Virus record (IMG/VR): IMGVR_UViG_3300033417_000005
Span: 8,617-72,616 of that record
Length of the DNA: 64,000 nt
Reading direction: 5' to 3' (one strand)
Source of the DNA: a virus
Lineage: Duplodnaviria > Caudoviricetes
Shown here: one piece after another, positions 1-53,976 of the stretch
Layout: every line of letters begins with the position of its first letter
Numbering within the stretch: position 1 is the stretch's first letter
Translations under genes and position numbers: made by a program
The notes under the pieces: generated by a model
What the model was told of the DNA's origin: nothing
Database searches by the model: none
What the model saw: only the letters and a program-made list of their open reading frames with translations

Positions 1-1249
1 AGAGTTAACAGCATCATTTAGAGGGCTAAGTACCGGCGCGAAACAGACAATTTTCGCCATCGGGGGGGTTGCAGCCTCACTAGGATTGATCGCCGCGGCT
101 ACAACGACGGTTATAAGAGCAACTCAAGGCGTTAGGGCTTTCGCTCTTGGGATCGTTTTCCTTGTGAACAAGGTTCTGGCCGCGGATGTTGCGCTCACGA
201 CTTTCAATGGTCTTTTGACGGCGACCGGGGTTACCAGTAAAGCAGCCCTTGCCGGAATCTTAGCGATGCGCGCAGGCATTCTAGGTCTCGTTGCCGCTCT
301 TTCAGCCTTTATAGGAAACCGGCTGGGAACGATTTTCACGGAATTCTTCGACCCTCAAATTAAGAGAGCTCGGGAACAGACGAGAAAACTGCTAGGGGAA
401 GCTGCGGCGCTGCAAGCTCGGGTATTTCAGCGCGACGTGTCCGAACGCGGTCTGCCGTTTGCTCAGGCCCGACTTGCTGGACAGTTTAGGAGCACGGCGG
501 AAGGCCTGAGGATGATGAAGGCCGGGCTGATCGAAGGGGCGGGAGCCGCGAAAGAGATGTCCAAGGAGCTGGAGGCTATCCTCAAAACGACGGATAAATT
601 TATACGCGACGTTGTATTCTTTGACCTGACTCCAAGACAAAGACAAATTGCTGAACTCGAAGTGGCGGCTCTCTCGCTTCAAGAAGCCGAGCAGCGAAGA
701 GCGTTTCAGGAGATTCGAATCCTCAAAGCGATGGATGCCGAGCTTACAAAGCTGGAGAGAAACAAGAAACTACGGGAGGAGATTCTACGAGCGCAGAAAA
801 TGGCGACGGAGGAGCAGGAGCGATTGAGAGAGGAGATGTTTGAGGAAGGAAAAGCCTTGGAAGAAAGCGTGTTTACTCCGGTACAAAAATTCCAAGCGGA
901 GGTCGCGAGGTTCTTGGAACTGTTTAAGGCCGGTGATCTTAGTAAGCAGGCGTTCGATAAACTGCTAGTCCGGTCACAGCGTGCTGCTTTCAGTGCTTTG
1001 CAAGGCAACGTCGTCACTACTCGGGCGGCCGCGGGTCGCGGTACGCTGGAAGCGCAGCAACGGCTGGAAGAGTTCAGGGCGCGTACGAGCGTAGATCCGG
1101 CGCGAACGAAGGAAGGCAAAGACATTGAGGCAATCTCCAAGGAAACAAAATTGATACGGGGGCTTGTTGAAAGGTTTCGGGACAGGCCCGGACAGCCCCC
1201 TGTTATCGACATACCGATAGACCTTGAACTGGCTAACTTTAACGGATAA
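1..1249 (+). CDS. Tail tape measure protein, C-terminal part (5' truncated by the window edge)
   Basis: Frame is open from position 2. Ala/Leu/Gly-rich hydrophobic stretch followed by long coiled-coil E/K/R/Q helices. Directly upstream of tail genes. Confidence 0.8.
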   Translation, partial: ELTASFRGLSTGAKQTIFAIGGVAASLGLIAAATTTVIRATQGVRAFALGIVFLVNKVLAADVALTTFNGLLTATGVTSKAALAGILAMRAGILGLVAALSAFIGNRLGTIFTEFFDPQIKRAREQTRKLLGEAAALQARVFQRDVSERGLPFAQARLAGQFRSTAEGLRMMKAGLIEGAGAAKEMSKELEAILKTTDKFIRDVVFFDLTPRQRQIAELEVAALSLQEAEQRRAFQEIRILKAMDAELTKLERNKKLREEILRAQKMATEEQERLREEMFEEGKALEESVFTPVQKFQAEVARFLELFKAGDLSKQAFDKLLVRSQRAAFSALQGNVVTTRAAAGRGTLEAQQRLEEFRARTSVDPARTKEGKDIEAISKETKLIRGLVERFRDRPGQPPVIDIPIDLELANFNG

Positions 1250-3307: not shown

Positions 3308-4543
3308 ATGGCCACGGCAATACTACTAAGCGAGAACGATAAGAAGTTATTGCAAAAACTCCTAGACGAGTTTCGTACAAGCCGTCTCGACCAGCTTTTT
3401 AACCCGTCGACCGTCGTAAGTCCTTCGGAGTCGGGGTTTTCGCAGCAAGCGAGTGACGTTTACGTAGTGCTGCCTCAAACGGCGGGCGGAATTCCCGGGT
3501 TGACAATGGGCAGTCCTGACGTCGCGGGCAGCGCGGTATGCGACGTCTATCGTATCAACGAATCCGACGAACTGGTGCTTTCCACGGGGGGACTCACCAA
3601 AAGGGTTTACAACCTTTCCACGACGGACATCCCTCAGGACTACACCTTGGCTAAGAAGCTGAAGGGGGGCCGGTGGGTGGCGGAATCCCTAGGCTCTTCC
3701 GAAAAGGTGAAGTGGGGGATGGCGACTGAAAACTGGACCAATTCTTCCCCCTGTCCTGGGGTGACAGTCACTCCAGTGGATGACTGTAGTGGAACAAATC
3801 CTACTCCTGGAACAAGTGACGACGTTGTCGTTTTATTGCCGCGTCGCGCCGAAGGGGATCCTAATGTAGTAGTCAACGACGTGATAGCCTACACTACAAC
3901 AACCGACGGGACCAGCGTCTGCGTCAGCGACTACCTAGACGCCAAGATTGGTTCCGTGATGCTGTGGGCCTTGGCTCAGGGGAGCATTCCTCCGGGATGG
4001 GCGGTGATGGACGGTACGGATAACGCCACCCCGCAAGGAAGCGGTTTGGACCTTAGTGACAAATTTATTCGCGCTGGAAGTGCAACAGGGGCGGAAGGCG
4101 GAACGGAAACGCACTTTCACGAGTTCGTGGTACAGATTCCGCCGCATACGATCAGTGCAAGCCAGTTGGCGCACACCCACCCGATTAGTATTAACATAGA
4201 CGACCATACGGTGGCTGACCTAGAACATACGCATCAAATCATTGAAGGCACAGCCAACCTCAATGAGGAGATTACAAGTCCCGACTTTGGCTTTCCTGAA
4301 CCGTGCGTTGGTCTGCCTCTGGACCCGGAAGGGTTGGCAGGATCATCCCTACAAGCGGATTGCGATATTCTAGGATCTTGGGGACCGCTCTCCCACGTTG
4401 TAGACGCCAGCGTACTTTCCGGAGGTCCTAGCGCTGTCACATTGGTTCATACGGGAGGAATAGGAGAGACATCTGCGGAAGAACATTTCCCCCCTTATAT
4501 CACGATGATCTTTATCGAGCGGATTGACAACAGTGAACCTTAA
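3308..4543 (+). CDS. Tail fibre/baseplate protein with tail-collar domain
   Basis: KIGSVMLWA...IPPGWAVMDG...DLSDKFIRAG...GGTETHFH and C-terminal HFPPYITMIFIERI are typical tail-collar motifs. Confidence 0.75.
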   Translation: MATAILLSENDKKLLQKLLDEFRTSRLDQLFNPSTVVSPSESGFSQQASDVYVVLPQTAGGIPGLTMGSPDVAGSAVCDVYRINESDELVLSTGGLTKRVYNLSTTDIPQDYTLAKKLKGGRWVAESLGSSEKVKWGMATENWTNSSPCPGVTVTPVDDCSGTNPTPGTSDDVVVLLPRRAEGDPNVVVNDVIAYTTTTDGTSVCVSDYLDAKIGSVMLWALAQGSIPPGWAVMDGTDNATPQGSGLDLSDKFIRAGSATGAEGGTETHFHEFVVQIPPHTISASQLAHTHPISINIDDHTVADLEHTHQIIEGTANLNEEITSPDFGFPEPCVGLPLDPEGLAGSSLQADCDILGSWGPLSHVVDASVLSGGPSAVTLVHTGGIGETSAEEHFPPYITMIFIERIDNSEP

Positions 4544-8587: not shown

Positions 8588-9718
8588 ATGAATGGAAAAT
8601 CCAAGATGGACGGTCGTGAATTTCTTACCGCTCGCAAGTGGCTGAAGGATTATGGATATCTTCCTAACGTCTCCTACGCAAGCCTTGATGCGTTAGACCG
8701 TAAAAGCGTGGAGCTGCGTCAAGGAGCGGAGATGGCGCAGAAGTTCTATGGGACAAAATTCATTGGGGAGCCTGACGCAGTAATTGGTCCTAGAACCTTG
8801 TCAGTGATGGCTGAACCGAGATGCGGATTCCCGGACACGAATTACGATAAGGAGCTATTGCCCAATGCGGCTGGGAGCGGGAGTTGGCCTGCTGCTTGCC
8901 ACGAGACTGGAATCAGAGTCTCCATTGACACGAGAAATGCTCCTAGTTGGATGGACGTTGACGCGATATTTGAAATTAGTAAGAGAGAGTACGCCAAGGT
9001 CGGTTGTCTTTTGGTGCGGGTTCCTTATGGGGAATCGGCGCACATTCGGCAAAGTTTCCGTTCCCTTTCCGGTTCTACGATTGGTCTTGCTGAGTTCAAC
9101 AATCAAAGCTGTAGCGACAGCGTGTTCAACTATAGGGACCCTAGTTACAATGGAGGAGCTGAGCGCAACGTCAACCTAGATCTTCACGAGCTAGGGCACA
9201 ACAACAACTTGGAGCATCGTAGTCAAGGGGGGATCATGCATCCCTCCATTACTTCTTCTCCCAACATGTTTGTTGATTTCGGTCCCAACATGAACATCAT
9301 CTATCAGGACCCGAGCTATCAAGACCTGAAGAAACGATATGGAGGACTGCCTATTCCGACAATTCCAATTCCACCAGTACCACCCGTTCCACCTACACCC
9401 ATTCCTTTACCACCTGAACCACCGAGGCCTCCTATGCCACCTATTGATTGGAGAGAAATCCTAGCATTTGTTTTGGAAATGATCAGCTTATGCCGAGCAC
9501 AAGGCATGAAAGAGCAAAGGATTCGTGAGAACATTCGCAATCCTGGACCCGTGCAAAAGTTCCGGCTGGAAAACCGTGTGCGGACCGCCAATTCAATACG
9601 GATCCGGGAATGGCGTCGAGTCGCCGACGAAGTGATGGCTCCTTACTACGAATCTGCCAAGGAACTGACAGACGACGATCTGGACCGTATGTTTGCAGCC
9701 GCCGCGGAAGATGAATAG
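8588..9718 (+). CDS. Matrixin (M10/MMP-like) zinc metallopeptidase with PG-binding-like prodomain and cysteine switch
   Basis: WLKDYGYL...RTLSVMAEPRCGFPD (PRCGxPD switch), HELGHNNNLEH zinc motif, IMHP Met-turn. Confidence 0.85.
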   Translation: MNGKSKMDGREFLTARKWLKDYGYLPNVSYASLDALDRKSVELRQGAEMAQKFYGTKFIGEPDAVIGPRTLSVMAEPRCGFPDTNYDKELLPNAAGSGSWPAACHETGIRVSIDTRNAPSWMDVDAIFEISKREYAKVGCLLVRVPYGESAHIRQSFRSLSGSTIGLAEFNNQSCSDSVFNYRDPSYNGGAERNVNLDLHELGHNNNLEHRSQGGIMHPSITSSPNMFVDFGPNMNIIYQDPSYQDLKKRYGGLPIPTIPIPPVPPVPPTPIPLPPEPPRPPMPPIDWREILAFVLEMISLCRAQGMKEQRIRENIRNPGPVQKFRLENRVRTANSIRIREWRRVADEVMAPYYESAKELTDDDLDRMFAAAAEDE

Positions 9719-20258: not shown

Positions 20259-20720
20259 ATGCCCATCATTCACTCAAAGAGATCTGTATACGCAGGGATA
20301 GACCCCGGTATGAGCGGTGGGCTCGTCTGTATCGGCCCTCAACTAATCGTTACCCCCATGCCTCCTACCGAAAGAGATATCTGGGATTGGTTCGAGGCTC
20401 TTCCGCCCGTACGTCTGGCCGTGATAGAAAAGGTGCATTCCATGCCCCGACAAGGAGTGGCGAGTACCTTCAAGTTCGGTTGCAGCTACGGAGGACTGCG
20501 CATGGCTCTGATTGCTTCTAAGATCCCATTTCAAGAAGTAACGCCCCAAACTTGGATCAAGGGACTCGGGATTCCCGGTAAGAAGAAAACTGAATCTGGG
20601 ACTCAGTGGAAAAATCGTCTCAAGGGCAAAGCGCAGCAATTCTTTCCGCAAGTAGGTGTGACGCTAAAAACGGCGGATGCACTTTTAATCGCCCGGTACT
20701 GCCAAAAAATCGGCAAGTAG
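20259..20720 (+). CDS. RuvC-like Holliday junction resolvase
   Basis: GIDPGMSGG, AVIEKVHSMP, FKFGCSYG, ADALLIA. Confidence 0.85.
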   Translation: MPIIHSKRSVYAGIDPGMSGGLVCIGPQLIVTPMPPTERDIWDWFEALPPVRLAVIEKVHSMPRQGVASTFKFGCSYGGLRMALIASKIPFQEVTPQTWIKGLGIPGKKKTESGTQWKNRLKGKAQQFFPQVGVTLKTADALLIARYCQKIGK

Positions 20721-20739
20721 CGCGGTAAAATGCGTTTAT

Positions 20740-20885
20740 GTTTTCCGCTTACGAAAAGGTGAGCGGCGGATTGAAACACGCTTATTTGCGGAAAGAATTG
20801 CTGCGCTTTGACCACACGGGGTCAATGGTTTGGATCGTGCGCCCTCTGCTTTGCCGTGCGATCTGATTTTGCGGCCCCGTGTGGT
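20740..20885 (+). CRISPR. Solitary CRISPR cassette 1: repeat (20740-20777), 36-nt spacer (20778-20813), long hairpin (20811-20885)
   Basis: Repeat GTTTTCCGCTTACGAAAAGGTGAGCGGCGGATTGAAAC with an 8-bp stem and ATTGAAAC end. Spacer matches the minus strand of 20624-20659 at 32/36. Confidence 0.8.
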
Positions 20886-20911
20886 TCTTACTAATCACCA
20901 GGAAAGTCGCG

Positions 20912-21019
20912 ATGAAACCTAGAATGATAATAGATGTGCTTTTGCTGCTGTTAACGTTTGTTTCTCTAGTGGGTATTAGTTTGTACAATGTCGTTAGGCT
21001 ATTGGAGAAATTTCGATGA
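20912..21019 (+). CDS. Small single-TM membrane protein (35 aa, not in the ORF track)
   Basis: MKPRMIIDVLLLLLTFVSLVGISLYNVVRLLEKFR. AGGA SD. ATGA overlap with the next gene. Confidence 0.55.
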   Translation: MKPRMIIDVLLLLLTFVSLVGISLYNVVRLLEKFR

Positions 21020-21237
21020 GCAATGAAAATCAAGTGACAGAGGACGAGTCGGACGAGAGTAGGTTTTTGAGAGGCTTTAGAAAGGCTTCCATCGCGGACT
21101 TGGAAAAAGTGGTCCGAAGGGCATTGGTGCTGGAGAAACATACGTACGCTGGGCGCGACACCGCAAGCTCTCTCTACCGTCTGCGGAAGAGTTTGGAGGG
21201 TATTTGGGGCCACGAGTTGCCAGAACTGAAGGAGTGA
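21016..21237 (+). CDS. Hypothetical protein
   Basis: Coupled to both neighbours in the operon. Confidence 0.55.
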   Translation: MSNENQVTEDESDESRFLRGFRKASIADLEKVVRRALVLEKHTYAGRDTASSLYRLRKSLEGIWGHELPELKE

Positions 21238-21240
21238 AAA

Positions 21241-21651
21241 ATGTGCCTGTCGGTAGCTGTTAATTATCCGGATTGTGTTTTGAGCAAGGGAGAGCACAAA
21301 GGATTTGAGTGGATGGTGGTACACAACGGCCACGGATACCGTTGCGGCTACGTGCGTCTCCCAGTCGGGCATCCGTGGCACGGTAAGTCTGATTGGGATC
21401 TCAACGCGAATGTTCATGGTGGATTGACGTTCTCCGAGCCGGATAAACCGTGTGATGGAGACCGACCGGACAATGCGTGGTGGATCGGGTTTGACTGCGC
21501 TCATGGGGGCGACGTACCTGACCCGTCCTTGCCGGGGTACACAGACCTCGGGCTTGGGCCAGAGTTTGGAATAGTCCGGACCACGGAGTACGTTGAGGAG
21601 CAATGTCGAGGCTTGTGCGATCAGGCAAAAGCGCGAGCTCGAAGAGGGTAA
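21241..21651 (+). CDS. Conserved phage hypothetical protein
   Basis: RCGYV...HPWHG...VHGGLTFS...WWIGFDCAH motif set. Confidence 0.7.
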   Translation: MCLSVAVNYPDCVLSKGEHKGFEWMVVHNGHGYRCGYVRLPVGHPWHGKSDWDLNANVHGGLTFSEPDKPCDGDRPDNAWWIGFDCAHGGDVPDPSLPGYTDLGLGPEFGIVRTTEYVEEQCRGLCDQAKARARRG

Positions 21652-21708
21652 CTAATCACCTACTTTAGCTACCACAACTTGCTTGTGTTCAGGGAGTCGG
21701 GCGGCGGT

Positions 21709-22251
21709 ATGTCTCAGTTTACGAAACATCTAGAACGGTGGGGAAACTGCGAGCAGTGTGAGCTTCACAAGGTTCGTACGAAGGTGGTGTTGTGGAGAGG
21801 ATCCAAGATTCCTTGCGACGTACTCTTTACAGGTGAAGCGCCCGGGCTGACTGAGGACATTGAAGGGCTGCCTTTCACGGGTCCAGCGGGGCGGCTGCTG
21901 GATCAGATTGTAGAGCGGTCGATACCCAATACCTTGTCGGTGGGATTTACAAATCTTATAGCCTGTATTCCGAGAGCCGTACCGGGTGGAAGCAAGGTGG
22001 GAGAACCTCCGCCTTGGGCTATTAAAGCGTGTGCTGATCGGCTGCGCGAGATTATTAAGATTGCGAATCCAGCACGGATTGTTACCGTGGGTACGCTGGC
22101 GAAGAAGTATTTGCCGAGCAGAAACCTGGAACTGCCCGCCATGGTATCGATTGTCCATCCCGCCGCGATTCTACGGAGCAATCCCGTACAAAAGGAAGCG
22201 GCGATAAGACAGTGTATCATTACTCTAACGGAAATGAGTGAAGATCTATGA
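21709..22251 (+). CDS. Uracil-DNA glycosylase, family 4 (Fe-S)
   Basis: CEQCEL, GEAPG, PFTGPAG, NLIACIP, HPAAILR. Confidence 0.9.
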   Translation: MSQFTKHLERWGNCEQCELHKVRTKVVLWRGSKIPCDVLFTGEAPGLTEDIEGLPFTGPAGRLLDQIVERSIPNTLSVGFTNLIACIPRAVPGGSKVGEPPPWAIKACADRLREIIKIANPARIVTVGTLAKKYLPSRNLELPAMVSIVHPAAILRSNPVQKEAAIRQCIITLTEMSEDL

Positions 22252-23288
22252 AAGAGAATCTGCAAACCGTATGGCGCGGTCCTCATGAAGACGGTATTAC
22301 TCAGTCCCTGCTCTCGCGGTTTCTTATGTGCCGTGAACGGTTTCGGGTATTGGTGATAGAGGGTCTGGCTCCTATGGAACAATTCAATCACCGCCTTGAG
22401 TATGGGAACTTTTGGCATATCTGTGAAGAGCATTCGTCAGGTGGAGGAAACTGGACCGCTCCTGTAACGGCTTATGCAAAACAGCTCGCCCTCAGGTTTC
22501 CCGAAAGCAGGGAACAGATTGAACATTGGTGGCGAGTTTGTCTGCGCCAGTTCGAGATCTATGAGGACCTAAAGGGACCTGTACGATGCAACAGCCTGAT
22601 GCAAGAGTTCGTGTTTTCGGTTCCCTATAAACTGCCTTCAGGTCGTACCGTGATTCTACGCGGGAAGTGGGACTCCGTGTTTGGAGAGGACGACGGTATC
22701 TGGCTGCTGGAACACAAAACCAAAGGGACCGTGGACGAGCAGACCATACGACGTCAGTTGACTTTTGATCTGCAAACCATGTTCTACGTCGTAGCCCTCA
22801 AAGAGCATATACGAACCAACACACGAAAGGAGATGAAAGGGAAGAAAGTAGCCGGGGTGCTCTACAACGTAGTGCGCAGGCCGCTAAGCGGGGGTAAAGG
22901 ATCTATCAGGCAACATAAAGCAACCAAGAACAAGCCGGGGGAGACGAAGGAACACTTCTACGATCGGGTGGCGAAGATCATTCAAGAAGACTCGGAGAAC
23001 TACTTTTTCCGGTGGAAAGTGGTGCTTACGAAGGGAGACGTGGCAGCTTTTAAAAGGAAGTTTTTGAGGCCGATCCTTGAGCAGTTGTGCGATTGGTGGC
23101 ATATTCAGGCAACGCTGACGCCTCCGCTTGCTTGGTATAATCGCAGTAATTACACGCACTGGCAAACTCCCTTTGAAGTGTGGAATGTTTTGGAGAAGGG
23201 AGGCACAACAGACTTGGATGCGTACCTTACCACGGGGAATCGTGCGGGACTTCACAAGGTGAAAACCTTGTTTGGGGAACTTGAGTAA
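22248..23288 (+). CDS. PD-(D/E)XK exonuclease (recombination)
   Basis: QSLLSRFLMCRERF, GKWD...LLEHKT, QTMFY. Confidence 0.8.
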   Translation: MKENLQTVWRGPHEDGITQSLLSRFLMCRERFRVLVIEGLAPMEQFNHRLEYGNFWHICEEHSSGGGNWTAPVTAYAKQLALRFPESREQIEHWWRVCLRQFEIYEDLKGPVRCNSLMQEFVFSVPYKLPSGRTVILRGKWDSVFGEDDGIWLLEHKTKGTVDEQTIRRQLTFDLQTMFYVVALKEHIRTNTRKEMKGKKVAGVLYNVVRRPLSGGKGSIRQHKATKNKPGETKEHFYDRVAKIIQEDSENYFFRWKVVLTKGDVAAFKRKFLRPILEQLCDWWHIQATLTPPLAWYNRSNYTHWQTPFEVWNVLEKGGTTDLDAYLTTGNRAGLHKVKTLFGELE

Positions 23289-23353
23289 CGCCACGCAGAT
23301 GGAGGAGCGTGGATAATCACCCATGGACGTTACCATTCTAAAAGGGGAAGGCT

Positions 23354-23947
23354 ATGATGGCAGTGAAGCAGCGTAAGAAGAAAGAGGGACCTTTGAGCAA
23401 GAGAGACCGGATAAGGGAGTATCTGCAAGGCTGTCCTGATCTGAGAAGTATCAACGCGAAGGAAATTGGGCGTATCTTCGGAGCGAATTCTTCCGAGATT
23501 TATAAGGTGCGGAGGGGGATCTATAAGTCTAGGGCGTTCGAGTACACCAATGCAGGTCGCGACGAGATGTTGAAAGAGACGCCCAAAGAGTTGTCTTGTC
23601 GCAAGGAGCCGACGGGTAAGAGAGGAAGAGTACTGGAATACTTGAGAAACCAGCCTGACCTGGCGAACATCAAAGCTAGGGAAATCGCGGTGAACTTCGG
23701 GGTGCATATTACGGAAGTGTATAGAGCAAGGAAGCTGCTTAGGGAGGAACCAGTCAAGCCACTTCTCCTGAGGTTGTCAGCGCAGGAACCTTCGGCAACA
23801 CTCGCGCAGCAATCTCCAGCTTTCAATGGAGCCGGTGACGACGGGGAACTGATTGGCGACCTGGTTGCACTTAACAAGATGGGTGTCGACAGAGTACGGA
23901 GGGCTGTTAAGATCCTGGACCGTTTGAGTATGGAGGATATTCAATGA
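23354..23947 (+). CDS. Protein with two tandem HTH-like repeats
   Basis: KRDRIREYL...NAKEIGRIFG...EIYKVRR and KRGRVLEYL...KAREIAVNFG...EVYRAR. Confidence 0.6.
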   Translation: MMAVKQRKKKEGPLSKRDRIREYLQGCPDLRSINAKEIGRIFGANSSEIYKVRRGIYKSRAFEYTNAGRDEMLKETPKELSCRKEPTGKRGRVLEYLRNQPDLANIKAREIAVNFGVHITEVYRARKLLREEPVKPLLLRLSAQEPSATLAQQSPAFNGAGDDGELIGDLVALNKMGVDRVRRAVKILDRLSMEDIQ

Positions 23948-24237
23948 AAAAATCCAGAAGAAGAACGGAACTGCCTAAGGACTACGAGCAGTATCTAATT
24001 CGGCTTACGGATGAGATCTTCGAACGGGCTTGCGACGAAATGAGCTGGACGTGGAACGAGCTGGCCGACCACGCCAACGTTAGCCGGAGTGCCGTAGCTC
24101 GGCTTGGCAACTACATTACTAAACTTCCTCGGCTTCAGACGTTCTACAAACTGGCAAGTGCGGTTGACATGGACTTGGAACTCGTAACCAAGCAAGTTGT
24201 TAAACTACGGACGGCGGGAAGTTTGAAAGTCGGCTAG
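23944..24237 (+). CDS. XRE/Cro-type HTH protein
   Basis: WTWNELADHANVSRSAVARLG...PRLQTFYKLA. Confidence 0.75.
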   Translation: MKKSRRRTELPKDYEQYLIRLTDEIFERACDEMSWTWNELADHANVSRSAVARLGNYITKLPRLQTFYKLASAVDMDLELVTKQVVKLRTAGSLKVG

Positions 24238-24368
24238 TTTCCGCTCGCCAATCAGCGGGCGGCGGATTGAAACAAACTACAGGCAGTGGGAAAGTTTGAA
24301 AGTCGGTTAAAACGATCCCAGCGCGGGTGGGGCGGCGTTTCCAAGCTCTCTCGCTCGCCCGTGCTGGG
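24237..24368 (+). CRISPR. Solitary CRISPR cassette 2: repeat (24237-24273), 36-nt spacer (24274-24309), hairpin (24317-24368)
   Basis: Repeat GTTTCCGCTCGCCAATCAGCGGGCGGCGGATTGAAAC (37 nt) shares its last 15 nt and its stem with repeat 1. Spacer is about 29/36 identical to 24202-24236. Confidence 0.78.
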
Positions 24369-24452
24369 TTTCACCGGGAGGGACTCGGTTTCCGTACTCT
24401 GCCGAGTTCCTCCTTTATTGACGCGAAGACTGAGAAAAGGAAAATAGGCAGA

Positions 24453-25358
24453 ATGGTGAAGATAACCAAGGACGTGACAATGGACGTTACAAGCAAGCAG
24501 CTTCGCAAAGGGTCCGTGAGCGGAAGGAAAAGGAAGTTACAAAGCTCCACGAAATCACAAAGCGTGATAGACCGTATTGCTCCGATCAACTTTGGTGAAA
24601 ACGATGGAATCAAGCTCAACCTCTATGGACGGAGCGGCACCGGGAAGACCACATTGTGGGCCACCTTTCCTAAACCGATACTGGCGGTGCTGGCTTCCGA
24701 ATCTAAGACGTCGGGGGAACTTCGGAGCATCAATACTTCCGAGTACCGTAAGACGATCAAGCAAGTGGTGCTGGAAGACTGTGACGAAATCGAGGAAATC
24801 TGCGCCCACGTGAAAGAAGCAAACTATGCTACTTTGGTATTGGACCACGCCACCGGATTGCAGCACAAGGTTTTGGCTGAAGTTCTAGGAATTGATAAAG
24901 TGCCGGAACAGCTTACTTGGGGGCTCGCCACTCAGTCGCAATACGGTCAGGTGGGGGTACGCATGAAGACTTATTTGCGCGCTCTGCTAGACGTAGAAAT
25001 CAACGTGGTGATCGTGGCACAGCAAAGAGAATTTCTTACGGAAGGGGATGAGGGGGCAAGTGAGATTTTAGCTCCGTACGTAGCGAGCGCCTTGAGCCCG
25101 AGCACGTGCGCATGGCTCAACTCCTCGTGCGACTACATTGCACAGACCTACATTAGGGAAGAAACGCTGGAAAAGAAGATCAAGATGGGAAAGAAGACAC
25201 GTATTCGCAAGGTGCGCACGGGCAGCGTACAATTCTGTTTACGGGCTGCACCTCACGCCGTGTATACCACCAAATTTCGCAGACCGAAAGGAGGAACGTA
25301 TCCGGATGTTATTGTAGACCCTGATTATGACAAGATCATGCAAGTCGTGAAAGGATAA
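24453..25358 (+). CDS. AAA_24/Sak4-like ATPase (recombination)
   Basis: LYGRSGTGKTT, TLVLDHATG, DYIAQT. Near the exonuclease and SSB-like genes. Confidence 0.8.
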   Translation: MVKITKDVTMDVTSKQLRKGSVSGRKRKLQSSTKSQSVIDRIAPINFGENDGIKLNLYGRSGTGKTTLWATFPKPILAVLASESKTSGELRSINTSEYRKTIKQVVLEDCDEIEEICAHVKEANYATLVLDHATGLQHKVLAEVLGIDKVPEQLTWGLATQSQYGQVGVRMKTYLRALLDVEINVVIVAQQREFLTEGDEGASEILAPYVASALSPSTCAWLNSSCDYIAQTYIREETLEKKIKMGKKTRIRKVRTGSVQFCLRAAPHAVYTTKFRRPKGGTYPDVIVDPDYDKIMQVVKG

Positions 25359-25651: not shown

Positions 25652-26866
25652 ATGGCAAAGACAAGTGCGAAAAAGCTGTTAGGTCCTAAGTTCAAAAAGC
25701 TGTTTGCGAAGAAGCGCGTGGAGGAGATCAGCCTGGAAGACTTCGGAGGCGGTGGGAATCTCCCGGATGGGATTGAAAATGGGGTGGCCAAGCTGGTGTC
25801 CATTAAGATTGGGGCTTATGGAGAGAGCACAACTTTGGCGGGCAAGCCATTCTTCATGCTACGGGGAGTAACCGTTGCCCCTGCCACACATGAGGGACTC
25901 AAGGTGCGGGGTATCCAAGAGAGTTTCGTGCTGGAACCATTGTGCGACACTTCGGGACGTAAACGTGAGACGGAGGAGGAGCATATCGACTACATGCTTG
26001 CCGTGTTGCAGCAGTTCGGGGTGGACACCGGCGAGATTGATGCGGAAGAGCTGGAGGAGGAAGACTTTTTTGCGGAGCTGATTGCCGACGGCGTCTACTT
26101 CCGCTTCCGCACCTGGAAAGGCAGGCCCTCCGATCAGTTTCCCAACCCTCGGGTTAATATTGAATTCTTAGGAGCCTGTGAGTACGAGGAGGGAGAAGAC
26201 GACATAGTCGCGGAAGAAGTGGAGGACGACACCCCCGAGGAAGACGAGGACGAGGAACCGGATTGGGAAAAGAACGACCGAAAAGGCAAGCGAAGTGCTG
26301 GTACGTCCAAGGGTACTCCTACGAAGAAGCCCGTCAAAGGACGTGACAATGCTGCGCAAGCAAAGGGGAAAAAGAAACCGCCTCCTGAAGATGAAGATGA
26401 AGAAGAAGACGAAGAGGCTGACTATTCCGATGTAACCGACCTTGACTTGCTGTCGGAACTCGCTGAAGATCAAGACGACATAGCGGCGAGGGAGAGGCTG
26501 GTCGAGCTGGGCGTGGAAGCGGGGCTGAGTAAGAAGAAACTCGAAGCCCTCGACAGTTGGTACGACGTGGCCGCGGCGATTGATGAAGCGGGTGAAGAAG
26601 ATGAGAATGAGGATGAGGATGGGGACGATGAAGACGAAGATGAAGACGAAGATGAAGATGAAGATGAAGACGAAGATGAAGAAGAGGGCCGTGAATTAGT
26701 GCCGGAGAAGGGCCAAGGGTGGCAATACAAGCCGCCGGGAGCTCGTAAGAAGATCCCCTGCGTTGTCACCGCCGTTGCCGCACGGCGTAAAACTTGTACC
26801 CTCAAGGGAAAGGATGGAAAGATATACAAGGACGTAACGTGGGCTGCCCTCATGAGTGGCAGGTAA
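25652..26866 (+). CDS. Putative ssDNA-binding protein with very acidic linkers and SH3/KOW-like C-terminus
   Basis: Position after the AAA ATPase, beta-rich N-domain, long D/E tracts. Confidence 0.5.
   Translation: MAKTSAKKLLGPKFKKLFAKKRVEEISLEDFGGGGNLPDGIENGVAKLVSIKIGAYGESTTLAGKPFFMLRGVTVAPATHEGLKVRGIQESFVLEPLCDTSGRKRETEEEHIDYMLAVLQQFGVDTGEIDAEELEEEDFFAELIADGVYFRFRTWKGRPSDQFPNPRVNIEFLGACEYEEGEDDIVAEEVEDDTPEEDEDEEPDWEKNDRKGKRSAGTSKGTPTKKPVKGRDNAAQAKGKKKPPPEDEDEEEDEEADYSDVTDLDLLSELAEDQDDIAARERLVELGVEAGLSKKKLEALDSWYDVAAAIDEAGEEDENEDEDGDDEDEDEDEDEDEDEDEDEEEGRELVPEKGQGWQYKPPGARKKIPCVVTAVAARRKTCTLKGKDGKIYKDVTWAALMSGR
26594..26686 (+). repeat. (GAAGAY)n coding repeat encoding poly-(ED)
   Basis: Seen directly in the sequence. 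Confidence 0.85.
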
Positions 26867-27183
26867 CGCGATTTCTACGCCGTACGGCGCACTCCCAGTC
26901 TTCCGGATGAGATGGGACGGGGGATTAGGGTGATTGCCCCACCGCGCCGTACGGTTTTTTGCTGCGCCAAGGACGTTACATTGCTGCGCCAAGGTGCAAG
27001 CCTGCTTCTAAGCCCCTCAGCCGCACCGTACAGGGCCTAAACCGGCTTTGGCTGCCCCCAGCTGCCATAAACCGCCAACTAGCGCCACATGGCGGCTGAG
27101 AGGCTCTCAGGGGCTTGTAAGAGTGGGCAGTTAGGGTAAAATAGGGGGCATAGCCAGTATCCCACACATTGCGCAGGTCCACC

Positions 27184-27354: not shown

Positions 27355-29348
27355 TGCGGTCGCTAGACACCGAGACTACGGGCGTAGACCTGTGGCATGG
27401 GGCCAAGCCGTTCTTCGTGACCTTTTGTGATGAGAAGGATCACATTACGTATTTTGAGTGGGAAGTTGATCCACATACCCGAGAGCCGCGGGTGAAGCGT
27501 AAGGACTTGACGGCAATCCAAGAGCTGATCGACGACTCGGAAACGCTCGTACTCCAAAACCCCAAGTTCGACTATCAGGCTCTGCAAACGGTGTTTGAAG
27601 GTCGGCTGCGATGGGAATGGAGCAAAGTACGCGATACGCTGCTGGCCGGTCATCTTATCAACAGTCTGGAACCCCACAACCTGACCGACATGGTTTCCAA
27701 ATACCTGGGCCTAGATATTCAACCCTACGAAAAGGATCTCCAAGCTGCTTCTGAAGAAGCGAGAAGATATGCACGCAGTCATTACCCCGAATGGAGAATC
27801 GCGAAAGCTGGCCTCGCCGAAATGCCAAGCGCCGGAGGCAAGGTGTGGAAGTTCGACACCTGGCTGCCTAAGACGCTGGCGAAATCTGAGGGGATGCTTA
27901 CAACCCATCCATATCACACGGCGCTCCGAAAATACGGAAATATCGACAGCACCTGCACTCTAGCCTTGTATAAAAGACAGCGCGCATTGTTACGAGAGAA
28001 AGGACTTTGGAAAATCTACAAGCATAGACTCAAGGTGCTTCCTATCGTAGTTCACATGGAACAGTGCGGAGTGCATCTGAGCAAGCATAGACTGCAAAAG
28101 CTGTACGAGGAATATACGCGGGAAAGTGAGAGAGCCGGAAAAACGTGCGTACGGATTGCTAAGAAGTATGGAGCTGATCTGACATTGCCTAAGAGCGGGG
28201 TGAACAACAGCCTGCGAGCCACAATCTTTGATCACCTGAAACTGAGCCCCCTGAATCTTAGCAGACGTACGGGGGAGCCGAGCCTGAACCAAACGGTGCT
28301 GGAAGAATATGGGGAACTCCTAAAGGAGGACGATCCTCGGCTAAAGTTCATCCAAGCTCTTCAAGCCAAACGCAAGCGCGATACGGCGATGGTGTATATG
28401 GAGGCTTATAAGCGATTTTGGCTTAAGGAAAGTGGAAGTTACCTACTGCATCCTAGTCTGAACCCCACGGGTACTCACACGTTGCGGTGGTCGAGCAGCC
28501 GGCCGAACGAACAGAACATCAGCAAAAAGGAGGGCTTCAACCTCCGCTATTGCTTCGGTCCCGCCCAAGGAAGAGAGTGGTGGTCCCTCGATGCGCAGAA
28601 CATAGAGCTCAGGATTCCCGCGTACGAAGCAAATGAAACCGATCTGGTATACGTATTCGATCATCCGGAGGAGGCTCCTTACTTTGGCAGCTATCATCTG
28701 GTCGTGGCTGATCTGCTGCATCCAAAACTGTTCAAAGAGTACGGCGCAGCGTTCAAAAAGAAGTTCTCCAGTACGTGGTATCAATGGCTGAAAAATGGAA
28801 ACTTTGCGGTTATCTACGGGTGTCAGCAACGGAAGGCGGATATCACGTACCACGTAGTTGGAGCGTACGAAAAGATTCGGAGAAGGTTTCCAAAGATCGC
28901 CGCGCTGGCCGACTATCAAATTCGTTATGCAAGAGAGCGCGGCTACGTGGAAACCATTCCTGACCGAAGTTTAGGGCAGCAACGGGGCTACCCGTTATAC
29001 TGCGTTCGGGGTGGTCGCACGGGGTATACGAACGATGTAAGCCCTACGTTGCCGCTTAATTACCACGTCCAAGGAACGGCCATGCAATGGATGCAGAATG
29101 GTATGATCCGATGCTACGACATCCTAAACAGGTGGAACCGTGAAGATTCAGCGGTGCAATACTTCATGATAATGCAAGTGCATGACGAGCTTGTATTCGA
29201 CTTTCCGAAAAGCACCATGGCCGAAAGCCTGAAAAGAATACAACGGATCAAGAGAGCGATGGAAAAGGGAGGAGAGGACATTGGTGTGCCCACGACGGTG
29301 GGAGTGGAATATCATCCCCATAACTGGAGTGAAGGTGAAACATGCTAG
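27351..29348 (+). CDS. polA: Family A DNA polymerase with 3'-5' exonuclease domain
   Basis: LDTETTG (ExoI), DAQNIELR (motif A), KNGNFAVIYG (motif B), QVHDELVF (motif C). Confidence 0.93.
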   Translation: MMRSLDTETTGVDLWHGAKPFFVTFCDEKDHITYFEWEVDPHTREPRVKRKDLTAIQELIDDSETLVLQNPKFDYQALQTVFEGRLRWEWSKVRDTLLAGHLINSLEPHNLTDMVSKYLGLDIQPYEKDLQAASEEARRYARSHYPEWRIAKAGLAEMPSAGGKVWKFDTWLPKTLAKSEGMLTTHPYHTALRKYGNIDSTCTLALYKRQRALLREKGLWKIYKHRLKVLPIVVHMEQCGVHLSKHRLQKLYEEYTRESERAGKTCVRIAKKYGADLTLPKSGVNNSLRATIFDHLKLSPLNLSRRTGEPSLNQTVLEEYGELLKEDDPRLKFIQALQAKRKRDTAMVYMEAYKRFWLKESGSYLLHPSLNPTGTHTLRWSSSRPNEQNISKKEGFNLRYCFGPAQGREWWSLDAQNIELRIPAYEANETDLVYVFDHPEEAPYFGSYHLVVADLLHPKLFKEYGAAFKKKFSSTWYQWLKNGNFAVIYGCQQRKADITYHVVGAYEKIRRRFPKIAALADYQIRYARERGYVETIPDRSLGQQRGYPLYCVRGGRTGYTNDVSPTLPLNYHVQGTAMQWMQNGMIRCYDILNRWNREDSAVQYFMIMQVHDELVFDFPKSTMAESLKRIQRIKRAMEKGGEDIGVPTTVGVEYHPHNWSEGETC

Positions 29349-30226
29349 CGAAGCGCTGTAACGTCCAGGATCTAAAAAGTATGTACGGGCTGAAGAATTT
29401 GGATGTCTTCTTCTATTGGATTGGTGAAAGAGAAAAGATACGCCGGGCCAAGGAAGCGGGAGAGCCTAAGCCTTGGACCGAGGATCCGATACTGCAAAAG
29501 TACAGATTCTGCAACGTCCGGAGAATGGACGACCGAGTAAGCAGGTGGCTCTTCGACCGCTGGTACGAGCCGGAATTTGATTGCTCGAATATGCTTACGG
29601 CGTGTACGATCGCTCGGCTGCTCAATCTGCCGGAGTCGTTGGAGGCTATTGGTTTTCCAAGACAGTGGAAACCGCACCGAGTAGAAAAGATACTGGAAGA
29701 GAGGAAAAAGCAGGGCTGCAAAACCTTCAACTCCGCCTACATAATCACCGGCTGCTTCGGGGGAAGTAAGATCCATCAAGTAGTCTGGTGGATTACGCAG
29801 CCTATTCACAAAGATCGCCACAAAATTGTGGATCGTACGAGCATGCGAGCTACTTGGCAAAATCTGCTGGCGTACCCCGGCATCAAGTCATTTCTAGCCG
29901 GGCAGATTGTGGCTGACCTGAGATGGGCGATCAACCACGAGTGGAAGGACCAATACACGTGGGCTCCTCTAGGACCGGGAAGCCGTAGAGGAATGAACAG
30001 GCTGCTCGAAAGACCGAAAAGTCGGGGGATGGGACAAGAAGAGTTTGATGGATACTTTGGGTCGCTGATCGAGGAAGGAAAAGACAGGGACGGGTGGGTG
30101 CTGGCTGAAACTATGGAACGGATGGAGGCGATCGACTGGCAAAACTGCTTGTGCGAATTCGACAAGTATATGAGAGCCCTGACGGGACAAGGCAAGCCGA
30201 AACAGAAATATGCGGGGGTAGAATGA
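29342..30226 (+). CDS. aGPT-Pplase clade 1-like amino acid:DNA transferase (thymidine hypermodification)
   Basis: FYWIGERE...PWTEDPILQKYRFCNVRRMDDRVS and QNCLCEFDKY. Confidence 0.85.
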   Translation: MLAKRCNVQDLKSMYGLKNLDVFFYWIGEREKIRRAKEAGEPKPWTEDPILQKYRFCNVRRMDDRVSRWLFDRWYEPEFDCSNMLTACTIARLLNLPESLEAIGFPRQWKPHRVEKILEERKKQGCKTFNSAYIITGCFGGSKIHQVVWWITQPIHKDRHKIVDRTSMRATWQNLLAYPGIKSFLAGQIVADLRWAINHEWKDQYTWAPLGPGSRRGMNRLLERPKSRGMGQEEFDGYFGSLIEEGKDRDGWVLAETMERMEAIDWQNCLCEFDKYMRALTGQGKPKQKYAGVE

Positions 30227-41518: not shown

Positions 41519-41796
41519 TATTTCTCTCCTTTTTCTAAAACGCGGTATAGGTCCTCCGCCCATTGGTCGTAGGTTTGGTTCCTTGGTACGCCGATCCAGA
41601 TCCATAGGGTGCGCATTGTTTGGGCAACCGCCTTCGTGCTTAGGTGGTCGTCTACAACAGCGGTTACGATGCGTTCTAAAATCTCTTCTTTGGGGGTACG
41701 CATACCAGCTTTGCTCATTTGTTGCAGCACCGTGCGCCTTACGCGACTGCGTGAGGACGTTACAACGCTGCGCGAGGTTTTACTTTTCTTCTTCAT
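41518..41796 (-). CDS. Hypothetical protein
   Basis: Shares its MKKKSKTS start with 40861-41205. Confidence 0.6.
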   Translation of the reverse strand: MKKKSKTSRSVVTSSRSRVRRTVLQQMSKAGMRTPKEEILERIVTAVVDDHLSTKAVAQTMRTLWIWIGVPRNQTYDQWAEDLYRVLEKGEK

Positions 41797-45727: not shown

Positions 45728-46045
45728 ATGGTCCGCGAAACTATGGTGTGGGAACCAGAATATCCACTGCCGAAATTGACAGCCGAAGACCGTCAAGCCT
45801 TGAATGAAATTGATATCAACAAAATAATTGCCAGCGTGGTGGCGGAGATGCCGCCCGAGGACGTTACAACGCTTCGCGAACAACAAAAACCATGGAAGGT
45901 GACCGATACGTTCGGTAACACAATTCAGCGATACAAAACTAAATCGGATGCATTAGCGTCGTGCATTGCTAGAAATCTACTCGCGAGGGAGATGGGATTG
46001 TGGATGAGGTATCGCGTTGCGAGAGATCAAGGGTGGGACGAGTGA
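45728..46045 (+). CDS. Hypothetical protein
   Basis: GGAGG SD. Confidence 0.55.
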   Translation: MVRETMVWEPEYPLPKLTAEDRQALNEIDINKIIASVVAEMPPEDVTTLREQQKPWKVTDTFGNTIQRYKTKSDALASCIARNLLAREMGLWMRYRVARDQGWDE

Positions 46046-47565: not shown

Positions 47566-47930
47566 GAAATGGAAGATGAATGAAAACCCTTGGCCGGAAA
47601 ACGATTTGTGAATGCAAGCGCAGCGCTGTAACGTCCAAGAAACGGGGTACTTCTAAATACCTCAAAAGTGGCAAATAATCTACCAGTTTGTTAAGCTAGG
47701 CAAACCTAGGCTGAGGGGCCCAAATTTGCGACCTCACGCACTTTGCCGGGTTTTGGCATAAAACTAGCCACTTGCCATTTTAGGACGTCAGATCCTAAAT
47801 TTGGGTCCCTGAGGACAAATTAAAAAGCAAACCGCATTGCCAATTGCCAAACCTGAATTTTCAAAACGCTCTGTACAGCGTACCCTTCGCCTCGTAGCGA
47901 CATAGCCCCATTGCCCCGTATGTCGGCTCG

Positions 47931-52072: not shown

Positions 52073-53675
52073 GAAAACAGGTCGTTTTACTGATGACGGG
52101 AACGGGCATTATGGGATCAAGTTCGACTCGGCAAAGGAACTGCAACAATTCGAGGAGATTGTAGCAAATGCTCTGGTAAGCCGTCAAGAGTTCTTCAAGT
52201 CGTTCACTGATCCGAGAAGGGATATCGACGACGAATGCGGGTATCCTCGTACGGAAACCTTGGAGGTCGAAGACTACCGGGAAATGTACGACAAGGAAAG
52301 CGTGGCTGCGCGAACGGTGAACGTGCTTCCCGAGGAGAGCTGGCAAGTACAGCCCCGAGTGTTTGAAACCGAAGACGTGGATAACATAACTCCATTTGAG
52401 GAAGACTGGGCGGAGCTTCCCAAGTCGCTGCGAGGGAGAAGCTGGTATCAGGATGAAGAAGGAAACCCGGTATGGGAACTGCTCAAACGAGTAGACATCC
52501 TGAGTGGTATCGGTTCTTACGGCATCCTGCTGTTTGGTCTCGACGACCTCGACGTCAATCAGCCTCTGACGACCCCCGTTGCCGGTGTGGAAGAGATGAT
52601 GGTTGATCCTGAAAGCAAAATATCTCCTTCGCGGCATAGGCTTCTGTTTGTAAGAGCATTCGATCAGTCCCTCGTACGAATAAGTCGCTTTAACACCGAT
52701 CGGTCGCACCCTCGGCACGGATTGCCTGAGATTTATGCCGTAACGCTCAACGATCCTAGGAACAACGTACAAGGAGCGATCGGTATCGACACGGCTACCG
52801 TTGACGTGCATTGGACCCGGGTGTTGCACGTCGCCGACAACCTCGGAAGCAGCGAAGTCTTTGGCGTCCCGCGTCAGCAGCAAGTATTCAATCGGCTGTA
52901 CGATTTACGGAAAACCTACGGCGGCAGCGCCGAAATGTATTGGCGAGGAGCATTTCCCGGCCTCTCTATCGAATCCCATCCTCAATTGGGAGCCTCAGTT
53001 TCTCTGAACAAAGATGCGATTCGCAGCCAAATGGAACAATACTTTAATGGACTTCAAAGATATCTGGCGGTGGTGGGGGCAAGCGTCAAGTCCATCGCTC
53101 CTCAAGTTGTGGAGCCGAGTAAGCATATCGACCAATACATCACGGCGATCTGCATCCTTCTCGGGGTTCCCAAGCGTGTGTTCATGGGGACTGAACGTGG
53201 GCAGCTGGCATCCGGCCAAGACGACAAGACCTGGAATGACCGACTGATGAAAAGGCACAAGTCCTATCTTACGCCCAAGCTCACTGTACCTTTCATAGAT
53301 CGTCTTATCGCTTATGGGGTGCTGCGGGAACCGGAGGGATATAGCGTGGTATGGCCCGATCTCAACAATCTCACCGATCAAGAGAAAGCTGAAGTGGCCG
53401 GTAAACGAACCGAGAGCTTGGCCAAGTACGTGGCGGGCGACGTGGAAACCATCATCACTCCCGTCGATTATCTAGTTCGTATCATAGGCTTCAGTCCGGA
53501 AGAAGCTCATGCCATCGTGGAAGCGGCGGAGGAAGCGGCCGAAGAAAAAGCGATTGAAGAGGGACGTGACAATGCTTTGCAAGAAGATGAAGTTCGTGTT
53601 AGAGGCTTCAATCCGGAAGATGAAGAAGGTGATGAAACAGGTGAAGAAGATGAAGATGAAGAAGATGAAGAATAA
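52050..53675 (+). CDS. Portal protein (DUF1073-like)
   Basis: After terL. ARTVNVLPEESW, HWTRVLH, GVPKRVFMG...D..TWN; acidic tail. Confidence 0.88.
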   Translation: MKTQIRDKKTGRFTDDGNGHYGIKFDSAKELQQFEEIVANALVSRQEFFKSFTDPRRDIDDECGYPRTETLEVEDYREMYDKESVAARTVNVLPEESWQVQPRVFETEDVDNITPFEEDWAELPKSLRGRSWYQDEEGNPVWELLKRVDILSGIGSYGILLFGLDDLDVNQPLTTPVAGVEEMMVDPESKISPSRHRLLFVRAFDQSLVRISRFNTDRSHPRHGLPEIYAVTLNDPRNNVQGAIGIDTATVDVHWTRVLHVADNLGSSEVFGVPRQQQVFNRLYDLRKTYGGSAEMYWRGAFPGLSIESHPQLGASVSLNKDAIRSQMEQYFNGLQRYLAVVGASVKSIAPQVVEPSKHIDQYITAICILLGVPKRVFMGTERGQLASGQDDKTWNDRLMKRHKSYLTPKLTVPFIDRLIAYGVLREPEGYSVVWPDLNNLTDQEKAEVAGKRTESLAKYVAGDVETIITPVDYLVRIIGFSPEEAHAIVEAAEEAAEEKAIEEGRDNALQEDEVRVRGFNPEDEEGDETGEEDEDEEDEE

Positions 53676-53976
53676 GAGTCTAAGACTTCGGCAAGCCGCC
53701 GTTTTCGCTTACGTGCAAGGCACCCTCGAAGAATTAAGCGAGGCGCGCATGGTAGTTTTGGAAGGGGTGGAGCTGACCCCTTTTGGAAGAACGCTGTTTG
53801 AAGAGTTGAGGAGATGCGGCTTTAGTCCAACGGACGAAGAGATCAACGCGGCGTTTGCCACAGCTTATGCGGGATTTGCCGACGAGGAACAGTGGCGACT
53901 TGGGGCAAAGCTAGTACGAAACTGTAGAGACAACCCAAAGCTGATCGAGATGTATACGGCCTACAAATACAACTAG
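53665..53976 (+). CDS. Hypothetical protein (start uncertain)
   Basis: Between portal and head morphogenesis genes. Confidence 0.45.
   Translation: MKNKSLRLRQAAVFAYVQGTLEELSEARMVVLEGVELTPFGRTLFEELRRCGFSPTDEEINAAFATAYAGFADEEQWRLGAKLVRNCRDNPKLIEMYTAYKYN

Follow-up and report, generated by a model that had tools for sequence, protein, structure and literature searches.

A phage genome with two single-repeat type I-C CRISPR units that may act as guide-RNA cassettes against related phages

Analysis of a 64-kb stretch of phage DNA (Duplodnaviria; Caudoviricetes), referred to here as the window, revealed two short units in each of which the end of a gene is followed by a lone CRISPR repeat, a spacer-length sequence resembling that gene, and a hairpin. 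The window spans positions 8,617 to 72,616 of IMGVR_UViG_3300033417_000005, a 72.6-kb IMG/VR virus record that is rated complete by CheckV. Our preferred reading, whose chances of being right we put at about even, is that both units are type I-C guide-RNA cassettes, carried by the phage without cas genes and with a single repeat each, that serve in conflict with its relatives. Genes for Cas5c, Cas7c and Cas3 are absent from the 72.6-kb record, so such cassettes would depend on a type I-C system supplied by the host.

The first cassette lies downstream of a gene for a 153-residue Holliday-junction resolvase (20259-20720, plus strand), which matches phrog_1770 (E 2e-19) and the RuvC-like family phrog_159 (E 4e-8) and has 487 homologues in a set of 5.8 billion proteins, with a best non-self identity of 69%. 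Beginning 19 nt past the resolvase stop codon is a 38-nt repeat, R1 (20740-20777, plus strand), composed of an 8-bp stem-loop and an 11-nt handle ending in ATTGAAAC, and directly after it comes spacer 1 (20778-20813, plus strand), the guide portion, 32-36 nt in length, of a predicted CRISPR RNA (crRNA). An earlier, sequence-only reading of this DNA had described the spacer as antisense to the adjacent RuvC-like gene, and its factual statements on this cassette all hold. Spacer 1 is identical at 32 of 36 positions to the reverse complement of 20624-20659, a mismatched minus-strand copy of itself within the resolvase gene, the differences falling at spacer positions 3, 5, 8 and 34. The runner-up 36-mer across the window matches at only 22 of 36 positions, and the chance of finding at least 32 of 36 for this spacer anywhere on the two strands of the window is roughly 1e-10. 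This own copy ends at 20659, leaving the 80 nt before R1 that the same reading had reported. When translated in the resolvase frame, the reverse-complemented spacer reads VKAQQFFPQIS, compared with GKAQQFFPQVG in the gene. As a separate observation, the resolvase mRNA could pair with spacer 1 at 35 of 36 positions in a read-through transcript, three of the four mismatches becoming G-U wobbles; such pairing would close a loop of about 118 nt around the repeat, and has a probability of 1/8 given that the changes are transitions.

The terminal 15 nt of R1 recur once in the window, at 24259-24273, where they form the end of a second repeat, R2 (37 nt; 24237-24273, plus strand). R2 follows a gene for a 97-residue HTH_3 (XRE-type) helix-turn-helix (HTH) protein (23944-24237, plus strand; PF01381, E 8e-5) so closely that it begins at the G that is the last base of the TAG stop codon. 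The 37-nt spacer 2 (24274-24310, plus strand) is a sense-strand copy of the last 36 nt of the HTH gene (24202-24237), identical in 30 of 37 alignment columns with six mismatches and one 1-nt gap, and the order of elements in this cassette is therefore own copy, repeat, copy and terminator. The local alignment score is 40, compared with at most 27 in shuffled sequences, and for both spacers the match to the own copy far exceeds the shuffled controls. In the 3′ half of spacer 2, the only differences from the gene end are a synonymous GGC/GGT change and TAG in place of TAA or the reverse, which suggests a coding origin. The sole relative of the HTH protein that was detected, P0122 (98 aa, 80% identity, encoded on a 589-bp European Nucleotide Archive contig), carries an indel of a single residue within the C-terminal stretch of which spacer 2 is a copy.

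Each spacer is followed by stable secondary structure. A two-tier hairpin (20806-20889, plus strand; -41.7 kcal/mol, z score -5.2) begins in the last 4 nt of spacer 1. These 4 nt double as the opening of the hairpin stem, so the guide may be anywhere from 32 to 36 nt long and the mismatch at position 34 may fall outside it. The base of this hairpin is perfect, as the sequence-only reading had it: its 11-nt arms (20811-20821 and 20875-20885) are 100% complementary, and the inner stem contains G-U pairs. Downstream of spacer 2 are two consecutive hairpins (24317-24417, plus strand; -60.6 kcal/mol and z score -4.0 for 24306-24440), the second of which is followed by TTTATT and is terminator-like. 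A hairpin with the same geometry as that after spacer 1, namely an 11-bp perfect base, a 53-nt interior and two tiers, occurs together with a T run after a gene end at 26880-26954, where there is no repeat. In view of this repeat-less structure, the hairpins following the spacers are most simply regarded as the terminators of their operons, and the type found after spacer 1 looks like the ordinary terminator type of this phage. The hairpin at 20806-20889 probably terminates the transcription unit and also forms the 3′ end of the guide RNA. On reading the sequence downstream of either spacer, we noticed no further repeat, not even a degenerate one, and a search for the handle allowing up to two mismatches returned R1 and R2 only. 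Each cassette consequently has a single repeat rather than the two or more bracketing repeats by which mini-arrays are defined. No Rfam family matches the region 20400-24600.

Several lines of evidence place R1 and R2 in a known family of repeats. Both form 8-bp stems followed by the handle, and R1 folds at -14.3 kcal/mol (z score -3.5), with a single additional T in the 5′ portion. When one genome per GTDB species was scanned with an exact pattern, two metagenome-assembled genomes proved to contain full arrays, one of a Pirellulaceae bacterium from Lake Mendota (G001) and one of an Actinomycetota. The repeat in the Lake Mendota genome equals R2 over its 5′ 9 nt and its 3′ 15 nt, the latter being the terminal segment common to R1 as well; the array (contig C67, 193901-196677) comprises 39 repeats with spacers of 33-39 nt and adjoins cas4, cas1c and cas2, with effector genes absent from the roughly 16 kb on either side to which the search extended. 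Arrays of the same 37-nt repeat family are present in several of 401 Pirellulales genomes. In one of these, genome G087, an array of the R1/R2 family adjoins genes for Cas3, Cas5c (TIGR01876), Cas8c (TIGR01863), Cas7c (TIGR02589), Cas4 and Cas1c, in the order cas3-cas5c-cas8c-cas7c-cas4-cas1. We aligned 20 members of the family, comprising R1, R2, seven host repeats and eleven solitary repeats from viruses. Across this alignment a 9-bp stem is 92.8% paired and includes six doubly changed pairs, and the stem covariation score of 0.547 (0.214 in shuffled alignments) is reached in none of 500 shuffles. The 11-nt stretch on the 3′ side of the stem, which ends in ATTGAAAC, is invariant in all 20. 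In type I-C systems, Cas5c cleaves at the base of the repeat stem and leaves an 11-nt 3′ handle. Processing of repeats by Cas5 is cited in a study of RNA anti-CRISPRs (PMC10651486). Judged by these comparisons, R1 and R2 are members of a type I-C CRISPR repeat family of Pirellulales (Planctomycetota), and the repeat, as the one indicator of the host, makes a member of this order the most likely host of the phage.

These observations suggest how the cassettes might function. Situated in the 3′ untranslated end of an operon, between the stop codon and the terminator, a cassette would be transcribed together with the upstream gene, and host Cas5c would then cut at the 3′ base of the repeat stem to yield a guide carrying the 11-nt handle and the spacer. 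In place of a second repeat, the terminator hairpin would supply the guide's 3′ end, and the guide would be loaded into the type I-C Cascade of the host. Each spacer would represent an allele of the neighboring phage gene taken from a close relative, such that the infected cell attacks co-infecting or superinfecting relatives bearing that allele. The carrier would be spared by the differences in its own copies, three seed mismatches in cassette 1 and six mismatches with a 1-nt gap in cassette 2, as well as by the lack of a canonical protospacer-adjacent motif (PAM) at either site. Processing, loading and interference, and also the target allele, are thus predicted components of this scheme. 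Like the orthologous sites of mini-array carriers, the phage's own sites are mutated relative to the spacers, to 32/36 with three seed mismatches in one case and to 30/37 with a gap in the other.

The same layout recurs outside this phage. A scan of IMG/VR for the 3′ handle located solitary repeats of the R1/R2 family with good stems in at least ten distinct contigs, and none of the seven such contigs compared by tblastx is related to the phage. At least six cassettes share the succession of stop codon, repeat, 25-43 nt and terminator hairpin. Most of the solitary repeats in these viral contigs have no nearby self-similar copy of the sequence that follows them. One that does is in an unrelated 69.8-kb contig, IMGVR_UViG_3300050821_016964 (L111), where a cassette lies 3′ of the large terminase gene (phrog_2). 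The spacer of this cassette copies the terminase gene in antisense, at a site 90 nt upstream of the repeat, with 26 of 36 positions identical. Nine nucleotide changes across 11 codons leave 10 of the 11 residues intact and include a serine codon switched from AGT to TCC (P 4e-5), indicating that this spacer is a real coding allele from a diverged relative. A 20-mer from it occurs in IMG/VR only in the contig itself. L111 contains two single-repeat cassettes about 2.5 kb apart (987-1059 and 3463-3535, both minus strand), and for the one that is not associated with the terminase there is no self-copy within 1.5 kb.

A further pair of viral contigs bears on what the sequence beyond the repeat represents. 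Upstream of a solitary type I-C repeat that they have in common, and in which 2 nt of the loop differ, L092 (3180-3432) and L161 (3939-4188) are 99% identical; from the first base after the repeat they are unrelated. This abrupt divergence implies that the spacer-terminator module has been exchanged at the repeat. Considered with the recurrent layout and the L111 cassette, it shows the sequences 3′ of these repeats behaving as spacers rather than as filler. No cross-targeting was detected among the fetched viral contigs carrying solitary repeats. Other arrangements were also encountered. A solitary repeat in IMGVR_UViG_3300036768_000632 (L032, about 541-577, minus strand) matches R2 at 28 of its last 30 nt; the fetched 10-kb stretch of this contig is dissimilar to the phage, and the sequence after the repeat is the antisense of a gene 3′ end, with no second copy nearby. 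In L115 (4195-4262), and in L089 where this element recurs, three tandem copies of the handle (16, 13 and 6 nt), nested or truncated, come after a hairpin as an odd, degenerate version of the 3′ end of the repeat. The solitary repeats ending at L092 855, L142 1695, L151 5689 and L157 5474 each immediately precede a ribosome-binding site and start codon, and the "spacer" at these repeats would be the beginning of the gene that follows in the phage itself.

The distribution of mismatches between spacer 1 and its own copy bears on the origin of the spacer. The seed of type I guides comprises spacer positions 1-5, 7 and 8. A repeat family of type I puts the PAM-proximal seed at the spacer's 5′ end. 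The sequence-only reading had placed three of the four mismatches there, and both this count and the orientation are correct (chance 0.018, a post-hoc figure), while the central 25 nt contain no mismatch at all (P 0.0056). Its description of the mismatches as a classic escape pattern fares less well. All four differences are non-synonymous and change 3 of 11 codons, which is what random changes would do, and thus they bear no signature of coding divergence. The altered codons are ones that vary across the resolvase family, flanking a conserved KAQQ(L/F)FP motif. The clustering of mismatches fits selection for mismatches in the seed; constraint on the protein alone could also explain their placement. 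Within the motif, the identical 25-nt core encodes KAQQFFP. Of 40 homologues only the one in this phage has FF, the others having LF, which indicates that spacer 1 came either from the lineage of the phage itself or from a relative very close to it. The proposal that the spacer corresponds to a homologous allele is sustained insofar as it encodes an in-frame variant of the resolvase; an allele that matches it was not recovered from the databases searched.

The points that weigh against a guide function directed at relatives concern the target, the PAM, the host arrays and the single repeat. No allele matching spacer 1 was found in IMG/VR, in metagenome contigs of the Joint Genome Institute (JGI) or in the set of 5.8 billion proteins, and a scan of the JGI metagenomes with an allele-specific 20-mer gave one chance match of 21 nt in an unrelated low-GC contig. 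With the nearest resolvase only 69% identical, this search had no power to decide in either direction. The 25-nt shared core has no match in IMG/VR, where relatives of the resolvase are at most 62% identical and none has the spacer allele or a downstream cassette; relatives from cultured phages reach at most 44% identity. The most efficient PAMs of type I-C systems are TTC, followed by TTT, CTT, CTC, TTA, TTG as well as TCC (PMC5602111). The flanks at the PAM position of the own copies are GTC in cassette 1, GTT in cassette 2 and GCT in L111, none of which is among these sequences. In cassette 1 the GTC is fixed by a conserved Val-Thr codon pair, its GT deriving from a Thr codon that at least 90% of homologues retain, and for this reason the allele of a relative would probably lack TTC too. 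Among the possible explanations are a 37-nt-repeat variant of type I-C that recognizes another PAM, a source allele that differs at this position, and non-canonical spacer acquisition. An array with exactly R1 or R2 was found neither in one genome per GTDB species nor in the 401 Pirellulales genomes, and the phage is matched by none of the roughly 160 spacers taken from six arrays of Pirellulales and one of Actinomycetota; the assignment of the host consequently stops at the level of order. The same spacers have no match in 1.17 Mb of fetched viral loci. Finally, a working type I-C guide made from a single repeat is itself a prediction, as are the expression and processing of both cassettes.

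Three other explanations for the spacers were considered and set aside. Self-regulation by a partially matching guide does not suit mismatches that are PAM-proximal and targets that lie at gene 3′ ends. RNA targeting of the type III kind does not suit two spacers that stand in opposite senses relative to their genes, nor a repeat family that accompanies type I-C operons. Drift of a local duplicate, as a general origin of the spacers, is ruled out for L111 by the synonymous recoding (P 4e-5), an exclusion that does not extend to cassette 1.

A serious rival, if an unlikely one in our estimation, holds that the repeats are RNA anti-CRISPR (Racr) decoys, that is, transcribed lone repeats that are bound and cut by host Cas5c and Cas7c and thereby divert Cas proteins from the guides of the host. 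The spacer-like sequences would then be relics of the repeat's arrival: a host array with spacers against this phage lineage would have recombined with the phage at a spacer and its protospacer, the phage would have retained one repeat, and the mismatches would literally reflect escape from host immunity, with which the non-PAM flanks and the seed mismatches are in keeping. Small HTH genes of the kind that R2 follows often mark anti-CRISPR loci. RacrIC1, a solitary type I-C repeat located 11 nt after a phage gene and co-transcribed with it, inhibits type I-C immunity (PMC10651486), and the corresponding distances here are 19 nt for R1 and 0 nt for R2. The scarcity of nearby self-copies among the solitary repeats of other viral contigs also suits decoys, as does the arrangement of cassette 2, in which copy, repeat and copy form the product expected from a spacer/protospacer crossover followed by excision between repeats. 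What such a crossover cannot yield in any simple way is an inverted copy 80-90 nt from the repeat, as seen in cassette 1 and in L111, and the L111 spacer, at 26/36 with synonymous recoding, is too diverged for either homologous capture or escape by a few mutations. A decoy would moreover have no need of the conserved gap of 25-43 nt, and it leaves the swap of spacers between near-identical contigs unexplained. Decoy and guide functions are mutually compatible, and one cassette could serve as both. A more extreme position, that the units are inert leftovers of repeat and spacer fragments, acquired by illegitimate or homologous recombination with host arrays and now functionless, is in our view the least probable. 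It can draw on the failure to find the exact host repeat and on the extra T in the 5′ part of R1. It sits poorly with the retention of both stems through compensatory differences alongside an unchanged 15-nt 3′ end, with the recurrence of the precise layout in unrelated viral contigs, and with the presence of two cassettes at the ends of operons, in equivalent positions, within one genome.

A special case of the proposal that the cassettes encode guides against relatives is CRISPR-guided homing, which we think quite improbable. Host Cas3 would cut the rival allele beside the insertion site, and repair would copy both the cassette and the resistant allele into the rival, giving spread of the sort achieved by free-standing homing endonuclease genes. 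In all three instances where a self-copy exists, the cassette is 0-90 nt from the resistant allele, inverted cassettes cannot be by-products of capture, and proximity of targets to arrays has been described as recurrent and unexplained (PMC6858448). The two cassettes of the phage flank a recombination module that encodes the resolvase, a PD-(D/E)XK exonuclease and a Sak4-like annealing protein. Tight linkage between weapon and immunity would be favored even in the absence of homing, however, processive degradation by Cas3 might destroy the rival instead of converting it, and in cassette 2, by extrapolation of what is modelled for type I-E, Cas3 would be expected to travel away from the cassette. 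In its fullest form, which is a speculative suggestion with slim chances, the cassettes would be protein-free homing selfish elements whose repair is aided by the flanked module of resolvase, exonuclease and annealase, and the layout of cassette 2 would preserve the founding scar left when it was captured from a host array. Homing aside, this layout is the one to be expected had the phage genome, in circular or concatemeric form, crossed over with an array spacer homologous to the end of the HTH gene and exited by recombination between the two flanking repeats; the second copy would then continue into the native terminator of the gene, which is the arrangement observed. Recombination between spacers and protospacers is described in Varble 2019, as cited in PMC7099407. 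Capture cannot account for proximity in general, because the copies in cassette 1 and in L111 are inverted and lie 80-90 nt from the repeat, and that in L111 is too diverged for such a crossover. In all three cases proximity could be explained either by selection for tight linkage of the guide to the resistant allele or by homing through repair of a cut rival.

Two features elsewhere in the window were also recorded. An asymmetric motif of about 22 nt (GGACGTNACAAYGCT..CGC..G) occurs in at least 20 copies on both strands between 2286 and 56785, some of them within coding regions (repeat families D4, D5, D10 and D12). Examples are 26339-26360, 41755-41776 and 45859-45880, with minus-strand copies at 29342-29370 and 47612-47640; the dispersed motif may be a phage promoter or another recognition site. 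Long runs of GAA, GAT and GAC codons, specifying acidic low-complexity protein segments, are present at 26185-26710 and 53603-53687 (repeat family D1).

The core of the finding is already known in kind. Mini-arrays of the portogloboviruses SPV1 and SPV2 target each other (Medvedeva 2019, PMC6858448), and viral mini-arrays target related viruses, with point mutations or deletions at the orthologous sites of their carriers and with targets near the arrays or in adjacent genes (PMC6858448, PMC11656645). Phage mini-arrays that target adjacent genes of close relatives were reported by Faure 2019, whose phage and prophage mini-arrays are summarised in those same two articles. The cassettes resemble viral mini-arrays in lacking cas genes, in having a repeat of a host family, in carrying one spacer, a variant of a gene of the type found in the carrier, and in the mutated own site and nearby target. 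They differ in having one repeat, a terminator hairpin in place of the second, a position at the 3′ end of an operon and no leader. Unlike the archaeal type I-A/I-D arrays of SPV1 and SPV2, they belong to a type I-C family of Planctomycetota, and their target virus is a predicted one. What sets this case apart is the absence of a second repeat, the placement between stop codon and terminator, the occurrence of two units in one genome and the type I-C family of Planctomycetota.

Within that framework, the cassettes add three cases of target proximity, two in this phage genome and one in an unrelated contig, to a pattern left unexplained in PMC6858448. The copy abutting the repeat in cassette 2 fits recombinational capture, and the two that are inverted and 80-90 nt away point to linkage selection or homing. 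For an uncultured 72.6-kb phage, the repeat also supplies a host assignment at the level of order, to the Pirellulales. The cassettes further blur the distinction between solitary repeats, regarded as RNA anti-CRISPRs, and mini-arrays. Should one repeat followed by a terminator suffice for a working type I-C guide, many units at present classed as solitary repeats may serve as weapons and not as decoys, and the cassette would be the smallest natural type I guide-RNA gene.

Formally, a cassette that lacks a second repeat is a solitary repeat unit, and members of that class have been shown to act as RNA anti-CRISPRs. Like RacrIC1 (Camara-Wilpert 2023, PMC10651486), each cassette has a lone type I-C repeat a few nucleotides after a phage gene, with which it is probably co-transcribed, in a phage without cas genes. 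Unlike RacrIC1, the repeat is followed by a spacer-length homologue of the neighboring gene and then by a hairpin, which suggests a guide rather than, or in addition to, a decoy. Free-standing homing endonuclease genes of T-even phages, such as segG and mobE, adjoin a gene whose allele in the carrier resists cutting, the alleles of relatives being sensitive. The cassettes share with them the form of a small mobile unit beside a gene whose carrier allele is resistant and whose alleles in relatives would be sensitive; they differ in having no nuclease gene, and cutting would come from host Cascade and Cas3 in a homing process that is hypothetical. Delocalised crRNAs offer a final parallel, in that the atypical crRNAs of CRISPR-associated transposons guide transposition and crRNA-like regulators repress cas or toxin genes through PAM-proximal partial matches (PMC11656645; bioRxiv 10.1101/2023.03.03.530964). 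As in those systems, a stand-alone repeat with its guide is found outside an array, in some cases with a partial match. The mismatches in the cassettes are PAM-proximal and the matching portion PAM-distal, however, which is the opposite of the design of crRNA-like repressors, and the sites lie at the 3′ ends of genes rather than at promoters.

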